From assembly GCA_951406725.2 (NCBI GenBank), contig OX597819.1, positions 98,456,001-98,520,000 on the forward strand: a stretch of 64,000 bases of DNA. Direction: 5' to 3'. Both the position numbers and the translations under genes were made by a program. This stretch comes from Octopus vulgaris. Lineage: Eukaryota. A model generated the notes under the pieces. It was not told the DNA's origin. It was given only the letters and a program-made list of their open reading frames with translations, and made no database searches. The number at the start of each line of letters is the position of its first letter. Position 1 is the stretch's first letter. Below, in pieces: positions 1-62,924 of the stretch.

Positions 1-670
1 TTTACATCCCTTCAACTATACTTGTCATAGTTGATACCTAACAACTCTCTCTCTCTCTCTCTTTCTTTCTCTGTTATTGAAGCCTTATGTTAACGTCACT
101 AGAATTATGCGTGGAAGGTAAATTGTAAATTAGATGCTATATTACATAATACAATGAGTACCATTTTGAAACCTCTTTTATCAAACTAAAGTAGATATAG
201 GCACAATCCCAGTAAATGGAAACTGAAAATAGGTAATAGATTGGGTAGGGAGGGTTAATCAGTCTTACCTTTAGTTGTCAGGGGTGATAGCTTTTGGCAA
301 ATTTTGATCTTATTCGTCCTCCTCAGCAGAGCATAGAGATTGCTAGATCAATAAAGTTAGAAAACTGGTAATCCATATAGGTGCAAGCAGGGCAATGCCA
401 AGATAAAGATGACTTGGTCAATGCTTGAATACTATTAACTCTTCAGTGTTTGGACTGGCCAAAACTGGCTGAAAATTATTCTTTATTTGTTTGAACTGGC
501 CAAACCAGCCATATCTGATTCTTCTACAAAATTGCTAAAAAAAAATAAACAGATCACATTATTGAATTCTTGTTGCTTTGAGATAAATCCTTTCCTGCCT
601 TTATTCAAGTAAAAGTATAGTAAAATTTTTGAGACTTCTTGGTTTTTTTCAGTGTTTGTTGAGAAGTGTA

Positions 671-11916: not shown

Positions 11917-12035
11917 TGCTTACAGCACCTAGGTTTCCCAAGCGGTCACCTATCTAAGTAGTAACTAGGCTTGACATTGCTTAACTTCAGCGATCGGACG
12001 AGAACCAGTGCTTTCAACATGATATGGCCGTAAGC
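11917..12035 (-). pseudogene. diverged full-length 5S rRNA copy (probable pseudogene)
   Basis: minus strand reads GCTTACGGCCATATCATGTTGAAAGCACTGGTTCTCGTCCGATCGCTGAAGTTAAGC...GGTGACCGCTTGGGAAACCTAGGTGCTGTAAGCA (119 nt); terminal helix intact, TTTTT just downstream; CpG-type transitions and an altered C box; solitary copy. Confidence 0.85.
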
Positions 12036-29341: not shown

Positions 29342-29524
29342 ATAATAATAACATTGAAAACTACCTTAGGAATTAGAACCCAGGTTCGAAATTTCCCCAA
29401 GACACCTGATGAAGGCTGGAGGGTATATCAGCCGAGATGTTGTGTTAACAACAAACAAGATGAGAACAAACATCCGTCAAATGTAAATAATGTACATAAT
29501 TCTTCATCTCTTAAATATAGAACT
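29342..29524 (+). mobile_element. 183-bp hammerhead-bearing mini-retroelement with 15-bp TSD
   Basis: GTATAATAAAAAACT at 29327-29341 and 29525-29539; internal GACAC-CTGATGA-A-GGCTG(10)CAGCC-GAGAT-GTT-GTGTT (GAAAC decayed to GAGAT). Confidence 0.7.
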
Positions 29525-32069: not shown

Positions 32070-34830
32070 CTTAATTTACAAGCCAAGAAAATTATGGAGA
32101 AATATAGGTTAGAGGAAAAAAAAATCCAACCATTCCAGCCTAGAATTAATTTCAAAGACCACAAGCTGAACTTCAGTACTAACCCTTCTATAAGACTTAT
32201 ATGCCCCTCGAAATCTGACTTGGGTAGGATAAGCAAACACATTATTGATAAATACATGAAAAATCTACACTTAAGAACATTACAAAAGCTAGATCTTTGG
32301 TCAAGTTCATATGAAGTAATTGACTGGTTTAACAAAATCACATCGAAGAAATAAACAAAATTCATACAACTAGATATATCCAACTACTATGCCTCCATTA
32401 TCCCAATCCTCAACAAAGCACTTATATTCGCAATGAAAAACTCTGAGCTAACTAGGGAAGAAGTTGATATAGTATTAGCTGCTAGAAAAATCAATTATTA
32501 AATTTGAGGGAAAATACTGGTTAAGAAAAGATAGGCCGGATTATGTTAGACATAACAATGGAATCGACTGACTCCACCCAGGTAACTGATGTAGTCGGAA
32601 TTTATATCTTATTCTGCCTAAACAAAGAATTTCCAAAAATAGGAGGTCTATACAGGGAAGACGCACTATCCACATTGCTTAACCCAGCGTAGAGATAGAA
32701 AAATATAGGAAAATTTCTTCAAAAACAGAGGTTTCCATTTTAATAGAGGAGGAGCACAACATAGTCCACTTCTTAGATGTTACACTAGACCGAAGTCCTG
32801 GAATATATAGATCATACCATAAACCCAATGAAAACCTTAAGCACTTTCACAAAAATAGTAATCACCCCAGGTGCATAACCCAATCCATAGTCGCAAACAT
32901 TTCAACCCGCACATCGAATCTATCAACCAACGAAGTAATCAAATTAAACGAGGATTACTATAACATAGCGCTAGAGAAGGCTGGATATAAAGAGAGATTA
33001 CTATATAACCCAAAATATAGCCATAAAACCCCCGCTATACCCCCATATGAAGGTAAAGAAACCAGTAAAGACAAAGACGCATGAGAACACAAGGCATAAC
33101 CAAACAGTGAACAGCTCTGGAGAGAAGAGAAAGGCTTCGAACGAGAATGAAATCCATACAGAAGTAAACAGCCAAAACAACAGCAGAAGCCCCTTAATAT
33201 GCCGTACATTAGAAATTAAGAAGACCATCATGCACACACACACACACACACACACAGAACACAACTGAGAGATGCAATAGTAAGCGACTCGCACACCAGA
33301 GCAGACACCACGGAAACAAGTCACGCTAGCACTAAAAATCGCACAATACCTATAAACACCAAAACTAATAATAATTCTAGGACCACATTGTAGTATACTG
33401 CTCTGTTCGTGAAACAGATAATTTCCAGCATCCCTAGACTGTTCTATACAGCGATAGAAAACCATAAAATATTTAATACACACAATGTACGCCACGCCTT
33501 CTCCACTAGCCGCAACCTGGCACAAATAATTGTGGCACATAATGCAAGTAGACTATATCACTTTCAAGGGCGATTAATTACAATACACTACACAAAGATA
33601 GGGAACGTATCAACGGAGATTCTAGTAATCCGAATCTGGATCATAAAGAAAAAATAACTAACAGAAGTGACCAAGGCACTGAGACCATAATAGTATGCAA
33701 TGGAGGAAGGGGGAATGGTAACAGAAGAACCAACAGTCAAAAGGAACCCTAACAAATTCTTTTACAGATATAGAATTAGAAGGACGAACCGCGAGAAATA
33801 ACAGCAATAAAACTTATATGCATAAAGAATTCTGAGATAATACTGAACCGAGGGAAGAGAGAATAGGAGAGACTTCTAGTAGAGTCAATAACACAGTAGA
33901 TAATAGAAATAGGGAAACAGGTCTATGCAACTGTGCTAGAGATAAAATATGCCCGTTGGACTCAAGATGTCTAATTAAGAACCTGGTCTATAGATGCAAA
34001 ATTACTTTTACATAGGGGCCAGCTCTCTTTTTTTCAAAAGGAGACAAGCCAATCATTTAAATTCTTTTAAAGGTAGGAAAAAATAATACAAGCCTAAGCA
34101 AACTAATTCGGTCAATTAGAGACAAAAACAATAGCTATTCTATTGAATAGGAATTAATTAGTACAGTTAAGCCTTATCGATTAGGGGGAAATAGATGCGA
34201 CTTATACCAAATATTTACATCAAAACACACATTAATTAATACAAAACACGAACAAGCCCCAAGATGTTTACACAAACACGGTAGGACATTCAAAAGATAT
34301 AATGATAATTCTAGATAGCCAACGTCCCAACAACAATTGAGCTTGATACAACATGGAATAACATAACCTAAACATATAAAAATATTCAATAAAAAAAACT
34401 AAACAAAAACAAATGCTACCTTATGTGTAGCGCAAATTGTGAGCAGCTCAACTTCCAAACATGAATATATAAACAAATATGAATTCTTCACCACAAGCAC
34501 TACACTTGAAATCAAAAATAAAGCACACACAACCATTAAAATGAACAAAAAAACCTTACAAAAACAATAATCTCAACCTTGTCCTATTTTATACCCAGCC
34601 CTAACTTCGGACAGCGACTGGTGTGAATTTGAGGTCACCAACACATACCGATAGATAACACCTCACCTCCCCCAGAACACCAACTAACAAAAATTTACTT
34701 CAATCAGTTCATTCCGAGGATGACCAAATGGATGGATTTTGGTGAAGCTGCACCGACAACAATGCACGGTTTCGTTTACAACCGTGAGTAGTCGCTGCAA
34801 CGAAACATGTGTAGGTCATCATAATATGCT
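32070..34830 (+). mobile_element. Penelope-like retroelement (Neptune-type), decayed RT plus GIY-YIG endonuclease
   Basis: FKDHKLNFSTNPSIRLICPSKSDLGRISK, FIQLDISNYY, GGLYRED, FLDVTLD...YHKPN...SNHP, then CNCARDKICPLDSRCLIKNLVYRC...NHLNSF; many stops and frameshifts. Confidence 0.88.
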
Positions 34831-35330: not shown

Positions 35331-35670
35331 AATTTTTCGGCTGCCAAATAAATGTTATTTTCATCAATATATTTTCTACGTTATCTCGACAACCAGCTTT
35401 AGTTATTTGAAAGCCACTGCTCTACAGCAACCAGGTTTCATTAGAAAGTGAAAATAGTTTCACACTTTCAATTTGAAACAAAATTACAAAACGTTACATT
35501 ATAAGGACCATATATGACTGGATAATTTGGTCGTTTTCCTTTTATCCCAGTGCCTGAAGCTCAAGGTGTGATTGTTGAACCTGGTCTTGAAATTACCCTC
35601 TGTAAGGCCCACGTATTTCGTCGTCGAAACCGTGTCCTTAGTGGATATAGAGTCCACGGTGCCTTCATAA

Positions 35671-36382: not shown

Positions 36383-36469
36383 AGAGTTTACGAAAAAAAC
36401 AAAAGACGAAGACAGGTGGTGTACAAAACAAACAGATTTATTAGTATAACGCTCAGGAATAGAAAAAGT

Positions 36470-36505
36470 CTTTTACGTTTCGAGCCTACGCTCTTCTACA
36501 GAAAG
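36470..36505 (-). ncRNA. hammerhead-like motif with non-canonical core (CUGUAGA) in a short repeat at about 36380-36555
   Basis: minus strand CUUU-CUGUAGA-A-GAGC-GUAG-GCUC-GAAAC-GUA-AAAG. Confidence 0.4.
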
Positions 36506-36947
36506 GGACACAGAAAAAACAAGGAGAGAAAAAATTGTGTGTAGTGGCTAACGATGGGGTAACATGAGAGGAGGTGTTTACTCAAGTACACAATACACAG
36601 CCTGTCCGAAAATCGAAACCACAACATTGCAACCCCCATAACCACTTGGCTATTCACTTTCACACTTGTAATATGATAATGTGTAAAGGCCGATGACCGT
36701 TTTCTGTGTTTTTATGAAATTTGAGAATTATAAAAATCGATACAATTTAAACGCTATGAATTCGTCTTTGTTTACTAAGTATTTTCATATTACTGAACGT
36801 AGCTCAATGTTGTTGCATCATCTTTTTCTGTATATATGCCCTATATATACGAGATATAGTATTTTTTCTACTTAGTTTCTTATAAGATTTGAGTGTGAAT
36901 CAATTCAGACAAGTTTTATGTGATCTCTATCAAATGTAACATCCTAT

Positions 36948-46039: not shown

Positions 46040-47599
46040 TATTTTGGGTCTGAAATACTGAAAGGAACCAATGTGCGTGAGAGCGCATATCTTGTTATTA
46101 ATTTTGTTGTCGTTGATTTTGTTGTTATTATGTGAGATTGTGTATATATAAGATGTGTATGAGGTGTTGGAATTCAGCTCTGCTCAGCATTTGAACTTTC
46201 GAACTTGTGGTTAAAAGTGTTCTATTTATAGTCATAGCTGCATTAAAAAAAATAATAAACTCTATATTGCAAATTAGATTGTCATTGTCCATCTGCAAAG
46301 TTTCCTCAAGCGAGAGCGTGGTGGCCAGAAGATACTCGTTCTATTGGTGGGCACTTAGTTTAGTTTTCTTGGTAAATAATTTTTTTTTAGCTAAAATAAT
46401 AGAAACTGTCTAAGGTTTCACAACATTGAATGAGTTAAATATTGAGTTTGAGATGAAAGAAAAGTAATTTTTATATTTTGGCAATGGCTGGAATTTTACT
46501 AACAGAAAACGTAGTAGAATTACGAGAAATTATTCAAGTTTTTTTGGGGGATGGCTGGATATTTAACAGAAACTGAAGTGAAGTAAGCGAAACTATTAAA
46601 TCGTTTTCCATAGTCGTAACCAGCAGTAAAATATTTTGTTAGAAATTACTAATTTCAGAGAAAATTTGACTAATTCCCGAAAACTATTTTCGAATTCATT
46701 GGAATTAAATACTGAAATATATTTGGAATCTATAGAAAATGTTAAGTTTGATGGTAGTGGAAGAAAAGGTCGTACGAAGAACACCGATATGATCGAGGTG
46801 GATGGAAGTATTGTCTAAAAGGAGGAGTTATATTTCGTAGACGAAATTCTACAGCGATTAATATATTCGCGTTGGGATCTATCAGAAAGTATTAAGAATG
46901 AATACGTACGTAATTGTTTATGCAATGATGTAAAAATGGGAAGTCGGATTAAGCGTTGTTTCTTTGTCTTTCTGAAGAGGTCACAGGATGAATTAAAAAA
47001 TAATGATCGAAAAAGCCACAGAAAGAATTTTCTGATATAATTAAAAAGGGCTTTAATAAACAGTTTTTAAGGCAGTTTTTTCAGAGTGCTATTTGTTCAT
47101 GGACCGAATCATATTCTTTATAAAACGTATTTGGTATTCACTAAAAAATTGAGGATAATAACAGAACTGTGAAGCACCGTTGTCGAATAATAGAATTATT
47201 ATTAACTGTTTAGAATGACTTTATTTAAATTATTCAAGGAAGACTACACTTATTGGTCATACACCAATTTGTGTTATAGCGTAATATAAATGACAGTTTC
47301 ACATAATTCACTGTAAACACTGGTGGCAAAGATATTGAGCAACATAAATTGTTGAAGCCTTTAAAAACAGAGCTTAATATTTTATATCGTAGGTTGCTAG
47401 TTCTACTATGAATGGATGTAATTGAATACAAATATTTTGATTATTTAGATCATTACAGAACGATCAATATAAGTGTATGGAGCATAAGATTCTAGACTAT
47501 TTAAAAAACTTTATTATAGGTATACAAACAAATGCCAAACTGCTTAGATAAATGTCACTACTGTGAAACCCCTAAGAATGTCACTTTTGTTGCATTCTG

Positions 47600-48000
47600 T
47601 ATCGTATTGCATTTAGTGAATTGGTTTAGAAATGTTAATATCTTTTATCTTCTATGAATGCAACCGGAAATGTAATCAGTGTTTATTGAGTAGAGAAACT
47701 TGTATATGATTTGGCAACGCATATTAATATCGATTTGATATCAACGCTAATATTATTATTTTGCAAACACCATATAAACTTTGACAAACTTTTGTAATTG
47801 TTTCTAAATTTGCTCTTAAATGAATGAAGATGCTGGGTACAGCGATATTTGAATGAGTTCGATGACATTCCGGTATAAGATTTCAAAACACTATCAATCT
47901 TCATATTAGTCCAGTAAATAATACCTTTAGTAGTATATCGAAGTTGCAGATGGTAGTCATTCAAGTGAGTACAATTACAAGATGAGATGTAGACTATTAG
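47600..48000 (-). mobile_element. Penelope-like GIY-YIG endonuclease remnant
   Basis: CNC...KGIIY...KSYTGMSSNSFKYRCTQHLHSFK...SLSKFIW. Confidence 0.75.
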
Positions 48001-48648: not shown

Positions 48649-48776
48649 CGCAACGGTTATCGCAAAAGGCCTGGAGGGAGGCCCAACATTCCGAGTTCTT
48701 TTTAGAAAAACTGAAGGACAGCTGCAATAAGTGTGTGAATCTAGGATGGGAATTTGTTGAATAAAATCATAACTAA

Positions 48777-49199
48777 GGCGCAGGAGTGGCTGTGTGGTAA
48801 GTAGCTTGCTAACCAACCACATGGTTCCGGGTTCAGTCCAACTGCGTGGCATCTTGGGCAAGTGTCTTCTGCTATAGCCCCGGGCCGACCAATGCCTTGT
48901 GAGTGGATTTGGTAGACGGAAACTGAAAGAAGCCTGTCGTATATATGTATATATATATAAGTGTGTGTGTATATGTTTGTGTGTCTGTGTTTGTCCCCCT
49001 AGCATTGCTTGACAACCGATGCTGGTGTGTTTACGTCCCCGTCACTTAGCGGTTCGGCAAAAGAGACCGATATAATAAGTACTGGGCTTACAAAGAATAA
49101 GTCCCGGGGTCGATTTGCTCGACTAAAGGCGGTGCTCCAGCATGGCCGCAGTCAAATGACTGAAACAAGTAAAAGAGTAAAAGAGTAAGAGTAAGAGTA
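48777..49199 (+). mobile_element. SINE family A, full length, young
   Basis: GGCGCAGGAGTGGCTGTGTGG head to AAAAGAGT-repeat tail; CpGs retained. Confidence 0.92.
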
Positions 49200-49338
49200 A
49201 CCGATCGCCCTGTGTTTTTTATCATAAGCCAGGAAATTTTCAGTATCCCTCGTATATCTATACAGATAGTGTGGTTGTGCTTGAAAATGGCATGTATATA
49301 TGTAAATATATATATAAATAAATATATATACATACATA

Positions 49339-49392
<54 letters not shown>

Positions 49393-49418
49393 TATAAATA
49401 AATATATATACATACATA

Positions 49419-49460
<42 letters not shown>

Positions 49461-49482
49461 TATAAATAAATATATATGCATA

Positions 49483-49699
49483 TACTCTTTTACTCTTTTA
49501 CTTGTTTCAGTCATTTGACTGCGGCCATGCTGGAGCACCGCCTTTAATCGAGCAACTCGACCCCGGGACTTTTGCAAGCCCAGTACTTATTCTATCGGTC
49601 TATTTTGCCGAACCGCTAAGTAACGGGGACATAAACACACTAGCATCGGTTGTCAAGCAATGCTAGGGGGACAAACACAAACACACAAACACACACACA

Positions 49700-49783
<84 letters not shown>

Positions 49784-50014
49784 AGAAGCCCGTCGTATAT
49801 ATGTATGTATGTATATATATATATATATATATACATACATATATACATATATACGACGGGCTTCTTTCAGTTTCCGTCTACCAAATCCACTCACAAGGCT
49901 TTTGTCGGCCCGAGGCTATAGTAGTAGACACTTGCCCAAGGTGCCACGCAGTGGGACTGAACCCGGAACCATGTGGTTGGTAAGCAAGCTACTTACCACA
50001 CAGCCGCTCCTGCG

Positions 50015-50016
<2 letters not shown>
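49483..50016 (-). mobile_element. SINE family A, full length, young
   Basis: inverted relative to 48777-49199. Confidence 0.92.
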
Positions 50017-50070
<54 letters not shown>

Positions 50071-50085
50071 CAAATATATATATAA

Positions 50086-50118
<33 letters not shown>

Positions 50119-50239
50119 CATGCATATATTATAATAAATTAGAGACAAAACCACTATTATGCAAATCAAACAAAGAAAGACTTAAGCCAATACATAAAAT
50201 ATAAAATAATTTATATAAATTAAAATTTAACAAATGAAT

Positions 50240-50291
50240 AACCACTACGATCGTTTCGTGTCAGCACATCTTAGACATTCTTCAGGTGGTT
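50240..50291 (-). ncRNA. hammerhead ribozyme motif, tandem copy 1
   Basis: reverse complement of 50568-50619. Confidence 0.68.
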
Positions 50292-50446
50292 TCTAAACCT
50301 TCTTAGCGAGTTATAAACTATGTTTATAACATAGTTTATAATAAATTAGAGACAAAACCACTATTATGCAAATCAAACAAAGAAAGACTTAAGCCAATAC
50401 ATAAAATATAAAATAATTTATATAAATTAAAATTTAACAAATGAAT

Positions 50447-50498
50447 AACCACTACGATCGTTTCGTGTCAGCACATCTTAGACATTCTTCAGGTGGTT
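50447..50498 (-). ncRNA. hammerhead ribozyme motif, tandem copy 2
   Basis: reverse complement of 50568-50619, 207 bp from copy 1. Confidence 0.68.
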
Positions 50499-50567
50499 TC
50501 TAAACCTTCTTAGCGAGTTATAAACTATGTTTATAACATAGTTTATAACTCGCTAAGAAGGTTTAGA

Positions 50568-50619
50568 AACCACCTGAAGAATGTCTAAGATGTGCTGACA
50601 CGAAACGATCGTAGTGGTT
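50568..50619 (+). ncRNA. minimal type I hammerhead ribozyme motif
   Basis: AACCAC-CUGAAGA-A-UGUC(11-nt loop)GACA-C-GAAAC-GAUC-GUA-GUGGUU; 6-bp stem I, palindromic stem III ACGAUCGU, GUA cleavage triplet; pair 10.1-11.1 is an A-C mismatch. Confidence 0.7.
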
Positions 50620-51698
50620 ATTCATTTGTTAAATTTTAATTTATATAAATTATTTTATATTTTATGTATTGGCTTAAGTCTTTCTTTGTTTGATTTGCAT
50701 AATAGTGGGTTTTGTCACTAATTTATTATAATATATTTTATTATAAAATTGGATTCAATCTTAAATCTGATTTTTCCTTGTAAATTTGGATTTATTCCCT
50801 AATATTTATTATTATTATACATACATATATATATATATACTAACATTAGCTTCATTATACTTATTGGATCCACGCGCTCCCAGAACATAAGCCTGCAAGT
50901 CAACTTTTATCTAGTTCACGTTTATCACTGTTCCTGTAAGATTGTATTTTATGGGGTAGAGCAAAAAAATTCAACGATTGCTTGAAATAAGGAGTAGATA
51001 GACAGCCAACAACTGATGAAGGGTCCTTTTTTGTATTAACTTGTTCTGCTTTCCATTTCACCTCCTTGTTTCCTCATTGTTTACGTATTTCATGTTATTT
51101 GCACCGTTAGTAGCGTCCTGTACCCATATATGCGTGTATATATATATATATATGACATGTAACGAAAGAGAATCTATCTTTCTGCCCACTACCTTCCTAA
51201 AGACAACTCGTGCTTATACTGTCTCTTCTCATAAGCTCGTCTTCCTAGCGTTCATAATAATTTTTCTATCGTCTGTTTTAACTGTTTTGTTCTCACTGTC
51301 CTGTTCTTGTTACCACTTTCACCCTCTGCAAAAATTGTATTTAACTTGATTTGTGGGAAGGACTGTTGCAACGAAGTCGCGTATTGTCCTTGCCTTCGTA
51401 ACGCGGAGTAGATGAAACAGGGACAACTGATGAAGGGGAATATTCTTTATGTTGCATGTCTCGTTTTTCTGCTTGCTTTTTCGTTGTTCCCCCCAAAAGT
51501 TCGTTTCTATGTTTTTGTTGTTATGTTTTCGTTTCTCATCGTATTCAACGTTTTTTTTTATGTCCTGTACCCATATATGCATGTATATATACATATATAA
51601 TTAAGTATGTACATATATGTATGTATATATGCATATATTTATATATTATTGATATTATTATATGATCGAATGCCACGCATCCTTTTCCAAGTAAGTAT

Positions 51699-52692
<994 letters not shown>

Positions 52693-62213: not shown

Positions 62214-62924
<711 letters not shown>

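Follow-up and report, generated by a model that had tools for sequence, protein, structure and literature searches.

A hammerhead-bearing palindrome downstream of ORC4 in Octopus vulgaris resembles a truncated Hydra-clade Penelope-like element

Setting and repeat architecture of the locus

The window analysed here is a stretch of 64,000 nucleotides of the Octopus vulgaris genome (contig OX597819.1, positions 98,456,001 to 98,520,000). Exons of ORC4 on the forward strand (6549-31610) encode residues 94-426 and match ORC4 of Octopus sinensis and O. bimaculoides, at 93-100% over cleanly bounded exons; the 5′ exons of the gene were not found in the window. A lone 5S rRNA-like copy lies on the reverse strand of an ORC4 intron (11917-12035, 89.9 bits). 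Three decayed ORF remnants of Hydra-clade Penelope-like elements (PLEs), with RT, CxCX5C linker and GIY-YIG content, are located at 32070-34276 (+), 35502-35666 (-) and 47752-47985 (-), the first of them starting about 460 nt past the ORC4 stop. The palindrome considered below is found roughly 18.5 kb past the same stop, among SINE-like repeats and microsatellites. Directly to its left, 48776-50017 holds two inverted copies of an abundant SINE-like repeat (arms of 156-199 nt, 87-91%), and self-BLAST identified 49490-50017 as a member of a repeat family. To its right, related repeat remnants at 51009-51036 and 51423-51450 (both on the forward strand) contain half a hammerhead core, CTGATGA, with no GAAA behind it; they are absent from the Craig 2021 consensus files, and the second can be drawn by eye as a possible pseudoknot. 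Farther along, an open frame at 51830-52525 (+) resembles by eye the C-terminal end of a LINE reverse transcriptase and had no Pfam match.

The palindrome, some 600 bases with its direct copy, is set between two (TA)n tracts. The left tract (50017-50128; 50017-50133 according to TRF) terminates the SINE-like repeat and is the likely insertion target, with the right tract (50825-50840) likely forming its other half; a target-site duplication is unreadable within such flanks. Between the tracts, 213 nt at 50129-50341 recur at 50336-50548 and are identical throughout, giving a period of 207. Copy 1, the direct duplicate (50129-50335, reverse strand), matches 50336-50542 exactly. Copy 2 (50336-50531, reverse strand), likely a fragment of a PLE 3′ UTR or pLTR, is the left arm of a palindrome with its axis at 50533 and a 3-nt loop, and copy 3 (50535-50731, forward strand) is the right, inverted arm, which departs from the other two at a substitution (50717) and at an insertion of 1 nt (about 50707). 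The original prediction of a 207-bp unit present twice directly and once inverted, with palindrome arms of about 197 bp, is upheld by this exact match and by the extent of the right arm. The unit has a GC content of 26%, the tandem amounts to 2.0 units and no further copy was found in the 64-kb window.

The palindrome centre (50518-50548) has the same letters as a 31-nt hairpin at 50311-50341 (14-bp arms, 3-nt loop), so the 207-bp unit includes the hairpin of the centre; an arm of at least 14 bp appeared in 0 of 2000 shuffles. Because the hammerhead motifs described below point outward from the axis, the arms are joined 5′ to 5′, and the centre is the likely fold-back point. The word TTATAA occurs at 50129, 50336 and 50543, that is, at both ends of the duplicated segment. 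(TA)n sequence lies 10 nt to the left of copy 1 and 93 nt to the right of copy 3, and copy 3 continues not into a unit junction but into a 93-nt extra segment (50732-50824, forward strand) that reaches the next (TA)n. This segment is a candidate one-sided PLE tail, longer than the published tails of 30-40 bp, and may alternatively be host DNA. Taken together, the hairpin within the unit, the TTATAA ends and the continuation of copy 3 into the 93-nt extra indicate that copy 1 unites one arm with the centre and with 14 nt from the opposite arm, which supports a slip. Since the direct copy repeats the palindrome centre and ends in TTATAA microhomology, a slip duplication (or an assembly error) is likelier than a rolling-circle product.

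If the palindromic stub were real and the direct 207-bp copy an assembly error, there would be neither a tandem nor a transcript with two hammerheads. Such an error would account for the complete identity of copies 1 and 2 over 213 nt beside a third copy that differs at two sites, and what is duplicated is precisely an arm and the centre of a 400-bp palindrome, a structure prone to assembly failure; problems of this kind are mentioned for PLE insertions (PMC8557442). The same pattern of differences is expected by chance in 1 case in 3, so the order of events is not given by divergence, and the duplication is undated. Against an error, the window is free of N and a 708-bp (TA)n tract (62215-62922) is assembled in it without gaps, suggesting long reads; 6 nt of microhomology mark the junction, the pattern expected of biological slippage; and a natural cluster, at comparison locus L013 (see below), has two same-strand hammerheads 435 nt apart together with inverted copies. 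An assembly error is the chief alternative to the slip; we consider it unlikely. A search of sequencing runs with 50518-51130, a query that omits the tandem junction, found part of the query in 20 of the 24 runs listed and at least half of it in 3, and no RNA run containing 50518-51130 was among the matches listed.

Hammerhead motifs and their predicted folding

All three copies carry the same 52-nt motif. On the reverse strand, motif 1 (50240-50291) has its predicted cut after 50246 and motif 2 (50447-50498) after 50453, 207 nt upstream of the motif 1 cut; motif 3 (50568-50619) lies on the forward strand with a predicted cut after 50613. Each comprises stem I AACCAC/GUGGUU, CUGAAGA, a 4-bp stem II, GAA, the self-complementary stem III ACGAUCGU and a predicted cut after GUA, and so presents the CUGANGA / GAAA / NUH core with three helices in type I order. 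In the numbering scheme used for hammerhead positions, A10.1 faces C11.1 in every copy, and a closing pair of helix II, whether G10.1-C11.1 or another, is absent. The descriptor scan and the covariance model described next both agree with the earlier claim of a complete type I hammerhead per copy with a palindromic stem III and a GUA site. The A-C apposition noted at the time was found in all three motifs, and the predicted cuts after 50246 and 50453 place two minus-strand hammerhead motifs 207 nt apart. The motif may alternatively be read as having a bulged A and a lost G; the bulged-A type makes up 3 of the 16 motifs from the loci fetched for comparison and is also seen in minimal hammerheads of other clades.

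A likeness to hammerheads could arise by chance in an AT-rich duplicated stretch with no relation to PLEs, and it is consistent with this that stem II has four pairs only and that the Rfam hammerhead models, a search put forward with the original prediction, gave no match either at the gathering score or at E≤10. At E≤10 Rfam returned just palindrome-driven miRNA matches and noise, and at the gathering score a 5S rRNA only. However, a custom descriptor written to permit the A10.1-C11.1 mismatch matched three times in the window and in none of 60 block-shuffled windows, and shuffled versions of the unit produced a match in 1 of 20,000, or 0 if stem III had to be self-complementary. A covariance model (R1) built from 16 hammerheads of other loci, with the window excluded, scored each copy at 39.1 bits (E 3e-8, rough), within the range of its own members (32.5-54.9); the next site in the window reached 19.8. 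Covariation across these 16 motifs, which were chosen for fitting the structure, gave a score reached by 0 of 500 shuffles.

Scans with the motif pattern matched no viral contig, no genome contig and two metagenome contigs. In the first of these, L001, positions 203-256 (+) form a clean type I hammerhead with an identical ACGAUCGU stem III and GUA site, whose stems I and II differ from those of the octopus motif yet are paired; it scores 26.7 bits under R1, a model built from Hydra-clade loci. An unrelated hammerhead of this kind, along with the shuffled controls and the R1 score, largely refutes a chance origin, which we regard as very improbable. The L001 sequence probably represents the solo end of a PLE in a small eukaryote, and its hammerhead adjoins a leucine-rich-repeat-like frame. 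The second contig, L002, scored 12.6 bits under R1 and was treated as chance, and a likeness to the motif spotted by eye at 47565-47583 was no better than that of shuffled queries.

Kinetics, tertiary contacts and any help from protein are left out of account in the folding model used here. For a minus-strand transcript of 405 nt, it predicts that the stem III palindromes of the two copies pair together (P 0.83-0.93), whereas the dimer stem I pairs have P≤0.02 and those of stem II P≤0.07. In the free fold, the 5′ strand of the upstream stem I pairs instead with a second GUGGUU, which each unit carries 91 nt beyond the proper one. Relative to the free ensemble, the full dimer costs 8.6 kcal/mol and single monomers cost 7.6-9.1; once the inverted arm is included, the dimer cost rises to 88.9 kcal/mol. 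Thus, of the dimer geometry proposed originally, the inter-copy stem III finds support and the full double fold is disfavoured. A read-through transcript is predicted to form a long hairpin (MFE -342 kcal/mol), in line with the long dsRNA anticipated earlier. The 207-nt circle has a predicted energy of -29.5 kcal/mol, compared with -28.4 ± 3.9 for 300 shuffles (z -0.28), and is therefore not predicted to be the highly self-paired monomer typical of retrozymes; together with the disfavoured double-hammerhead fold, this argues against a retrozyme-type family.

Among mispairs at 10.1-11.1, U-U is reported as the best tolerated (PMC3088659), and A-C should therefore be weaker. The minimal hammerheads of PLEs are described as cutting poorly in vitro, even as dimers (PMC4209133). 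With A10.1-C11.1, a 4-bp stem II and a decoy partner for stem I, the octopus hammerhead is predicted to cut poorly, and the stub is probably inert.

These predictions bear on whether the locus could be a true non-LTR retrozyme, that is, a 207-nt non-autonomous family spreading through dimeric hammerhead cutting, circles and rolling-circle reverse transcription, with the inverted arm made by fold-back at the hairpin of the unit. If the assembly is correct, the length of 207 nt, the GC content of 26% and the presence of a type I hammerhead in each of 2.0 consecutive units agree with what is described for the class (170-400 nt, GC under 45-50%; PMC7229834). The motif MFE of -8.1 kcal/mol passes the -5 cut-off of a 2026 preprint in which animal retrozymes are traced to PLE pLTRs (Li et al. 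2026, 10.64898/2026.07.22.740005), folding predicts the inter-copy stem III, and some known pLTRs contain a 5′ palindrome of 18-38 bp of their own (PMC3846280). On the other hand, the array stops at two units with no more copies in 64 kb, copy 3 continues into sequence outside the unit and stem I of the dimer is hardly ever paired in the prediction; strong self-pairing is described for retrozyme circles (PMC7229834), and the preprint reports cleavage for 1 of 9 predicted dimers. That the locus is a true retrozyme is unlikely. In the preprint, two hammerhead units in succession suffice for a call of activity (10.64898/2026.07.22.740005), and the octopus locus would probably pass its screen if the mismatch were allowed, without being a working retrozyme; the preprint's main text names no mollusc, and its supplements may list further families. 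The undescribed retrozyme-type family of the original prediction is not supported by this single locus, whose anatomy fits 5′-truncated insertions of PLE 3′ ends, and the tandem, rather than a retrozyme product, looks like a duplicated left arm plus palindrome centre.

Hydra-clade remnants and relatives

Proteins of the Hydra clade are marked by RWK, DKT and CxCX5C and by no CCHH. One remnant in the window has CxCX5C at 33926, and among 15 long relatives RWK/R was found in 7, DKT/S in 11, CxCX5C in 6 and the Neptune linker CX2-5CxxC in none. Given these motifs, the remnants are better named Hydra-clade than Neptune-like, the label they had originally received, and the partner clade is likely Hydra. 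Pfam named none of the PLE pieces nor their long relatives; word-seeded protein searches with two of the pieces returned nothing, and the relatives were found by a full HMMER search with the third.

The stub itself has no ORF, as expected of a 5′-truncated copy, and 50100-50850 gave no tblastn match with 15 Hydra-type proteins. At the nucleotide level, the best local score between the unit and the remnants in the window was 32, compared with 28-40 for shuffled queries. No autonomous element ending in exactly this 3′ sequence was found in the window or the fetched loci, so the assignment to PLEs is based on anatomy and motif likeness. Insertion into (TA)n, a habit of the Hydra clade, is seen at the locus; this target is common to Naiads and others and is therefore not diagnostic alone. 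We think it probable that the stub belongs to the Hydra clade, and it is the bulged-A reading of the motif that keeps the assignment from being firmer.

Other hammerhead-like strings were noted in the window. Behind a Hydra remnant, 34780-34820 (+) reads GAA-ACATGTGT-A, sharing with the motif its 8-nt stem III and the GUA layout, and has a broken 5′ core; it is absent among the 13 R1 matches up to E 5. Weaker sites with damaged cores at 29399-29448 (+, 19.8 bits) and 36467-36508 (-, 17.2 bits) are probably decayed PLE ends of other families.

Comparison loci were obtained from the alignment of the proteins of 11 relatives, which led to 12 loci (L003-L014) in 6 assemblies; viral contigs gave no Hydra locus. 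All 12 hold animal-type Hydra-clade PLEs with (TA)n flanks and are most likely animal host DNA inside MAGs or bacterial assemblies, i.e. host contamination. A single assembly accounts for five of them (L006, L009, L011, L013, L014), and hence one host for the ORF-less stubs. Hammerhead matches were present in 11 of the 12 loci, and the base of helix II in the 16 distinct motifs was G-C in 8, U-U in 5 and a bulged A followed by G-C in 3. Across the 25 Hydra families of File S2 of PMC8557442, our own count at 10.1-11.1 gave U-U or U-C in 15, G-C in 7, G-U in 2 and A-U in 1; A-C was found in 0 of these 25 and in 0 of the 16 fetched motifs.

At L006, two ORF-less head-to-head hammerhead palindromes lie between (TA)n tracts, with one-sided extras of 67/8 nt and 65/2 nt (93/10 in the octopus). 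At L014, the element with an ORF has a 3′ UTR that matches the first palindrome at 95-97% identity, and the tail is on the longer arm of that palindrome. L006 also contains a 3-copy 220-bp tandem with no hammerhead match. At L013, the two same-strand motifs are accompanied by inverted pieces. At L010 a Hydra ORF is flanked by direct repeats, and its hammerhead (stem I ACCAC/GUGGU, CUGAAGA, U-U at 10.1-11.1) shares the ACCAC/GUGGU pairing and CUGAAGA core with the octopus motif, the 10.1-11.1 position being mismatched in both.

The sole Octopus entry in File S2 of PMC8557442 is Hydra-1_Obim, from Octopus bimaculoides. By eye, and post hoc, it has two 7-nt blocks outside the core in common with the present motif, GTTTAGA ahead of stem I and ATGTCTA where stem II begins. 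Its stem II has 7 bp, compared with 4 bp here, and the two are also unlike in stems I and III, in loop 2 and in their flanks, indicating a separate family. The exact letters of the motif are absent from the PMC8557442 supplement, and no description of the family was found in that supplement or in the papers searched on octopus hammerheads and Penelope elements, Repbase and Dfam lying outside this search.

Proposed origin and comparison with known systems

We favour, as the likely explanation, that the locus is an ORF-less stub of a PLE 3′ end, likely of the Hydra clade, whose left arm was probably duplicated by slippage between TTATAA words. We infer four steps from the observed repeats, motifs, flanks and likeness to Hydra stubs. 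An autonomous PLE protein acting in trans would have nicked (TA)n, with cDNA starting at the far end of the tail. The cDNA would then have passed through an uncut hammerhead and halted about 80 nt upstream of the cut site. Next, it may have folded back and copied itself, giving the inverted arm without a tail. Finally, at insertion or later, a strand may have slipped back 207 nt between two TTATAA words, so that the arm and the centre were repeated. The hammerhead would have been a passenger, in need of a dimer fold, cutting weakly and, with transcription of both arms, shut off by the long hairpin. Priming in trans through an uncut hammerhead fits in vitro findings on a Poseidon PLE, for which AT-rich targets and two internal start sites defining the tail were described, uncut RNA was the main template, the hammerhead was active only with protein and RNA-seq showed no RNA ends at the cut site (PMC11167929).

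A more far-reaching possibility is that of a retrozyme at birth, in which a fold-back stub and one slip at microhomology would have brought two hammerheads into register at a stroke, their stem III palindromes pairing together, so that a 207-nt circle would be released from a minus-strand transcript and could be spread by a Hydra-clade RT as a new cephalopod family. We rate this as improbable; if true, it would supply the missing step from monomer to tandem in the model of a pLTR origin. Cephalopods carry out heavy A-to-I editing and ADAR prefers A-C mismatches, so one might add that editing of A10.1 opposite C11.1 would create an I-C pair and switch the ribozyme on. An editing switch has reportedly been described in one study, with an engineered ribozyme. 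In the long hairpin, A10.1 pairs with U, so specific editing is unlikely, and we give this addition almost no credence.

As read here the locus matters little, since hammerhead-bearing PLE stubs, inverted and in tandem, are common and already published. Its contribution is an Octopus hammerhead family and a correction of the likely partner clade to Hydra. What makes it useful is the tandem unit, which takes in the fold-back centre and has microhomology at its ends. If the tandem is real, it neatly illustrates how one pLTR stub can turn into the kind of dimer scored as active in retrozyme screens, and it offers a small natural substrate on which to study dimer cleavage with an A10.1-C11.1 mismatch.

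All structural features but the duplicated fold-back centre are already in print or present in the fetched loci. A head-to-head inverted 5′-truncated copy with a palindromic junction, as seen here, is characteristic of EN+ Penelope-like insertions, and such copies with a one-sided tail have been documented (PMC3846280; PMC8557442). Partial tandems accompanied by an inverted 5′-truncated copy and a one-sided tail of 30-40 bp are also reported (PMC8557442).

The likeness is greatest to Hydra-clade PLEs, which have canonical hammerheads and insert into (TA)n (Craig et al. 2021, PMC8557442). Shared features are a type I hammerhead 100-250 nt from the 3′ end, a self-complementary stem III starting with AC, a frequent mismatch at 10.1-11.1, the (TA)n target and an inverted 5′-truncated copy. 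The octopus locus differs in lacking an ORF, in having A-C rather than U-U, U-C or A-U, and in its extra direct copy that holds the fold-back centre.

In the system published in 2013 (PMC3846280), a pair of direct pLTRs and an inverted one, of about 200 bp, are likewise arranged head to head, with a palindrome at the 5′ junction and a one-sided extension. There, however, the direct pLTRs are separated by an ORF or captured gene, whereas the direct octopus units abut, and target duplications of 8-10 bp are found, whereas none is legible in (TA)n at the octopus locus.

The PLE hammerheads of Cervera and De la Pena (2014, PMC4209133), for which motif pairs 100-700 bp apart on opposite strands are reported, share the palindromic helix III suited to dimer folding; those described have a conserved G10.1-C11.1 and a helix II of 7-8 bp, in contrast to A-C and 4 bp here. 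Finally, metazoan non-LTR retrozymes as described (Cervera and De la Pena 2020, PMC7229834; 10.64898/2026.07.22.740005) resemble the locus in being short, low-GC tandems with a type I hammerhead per copy, in their PLE pLTR origin and in a dimer-type stem III. The octopus locus, known from its sequence, differs from them in comprising two units and an inverted arm in place of an array.
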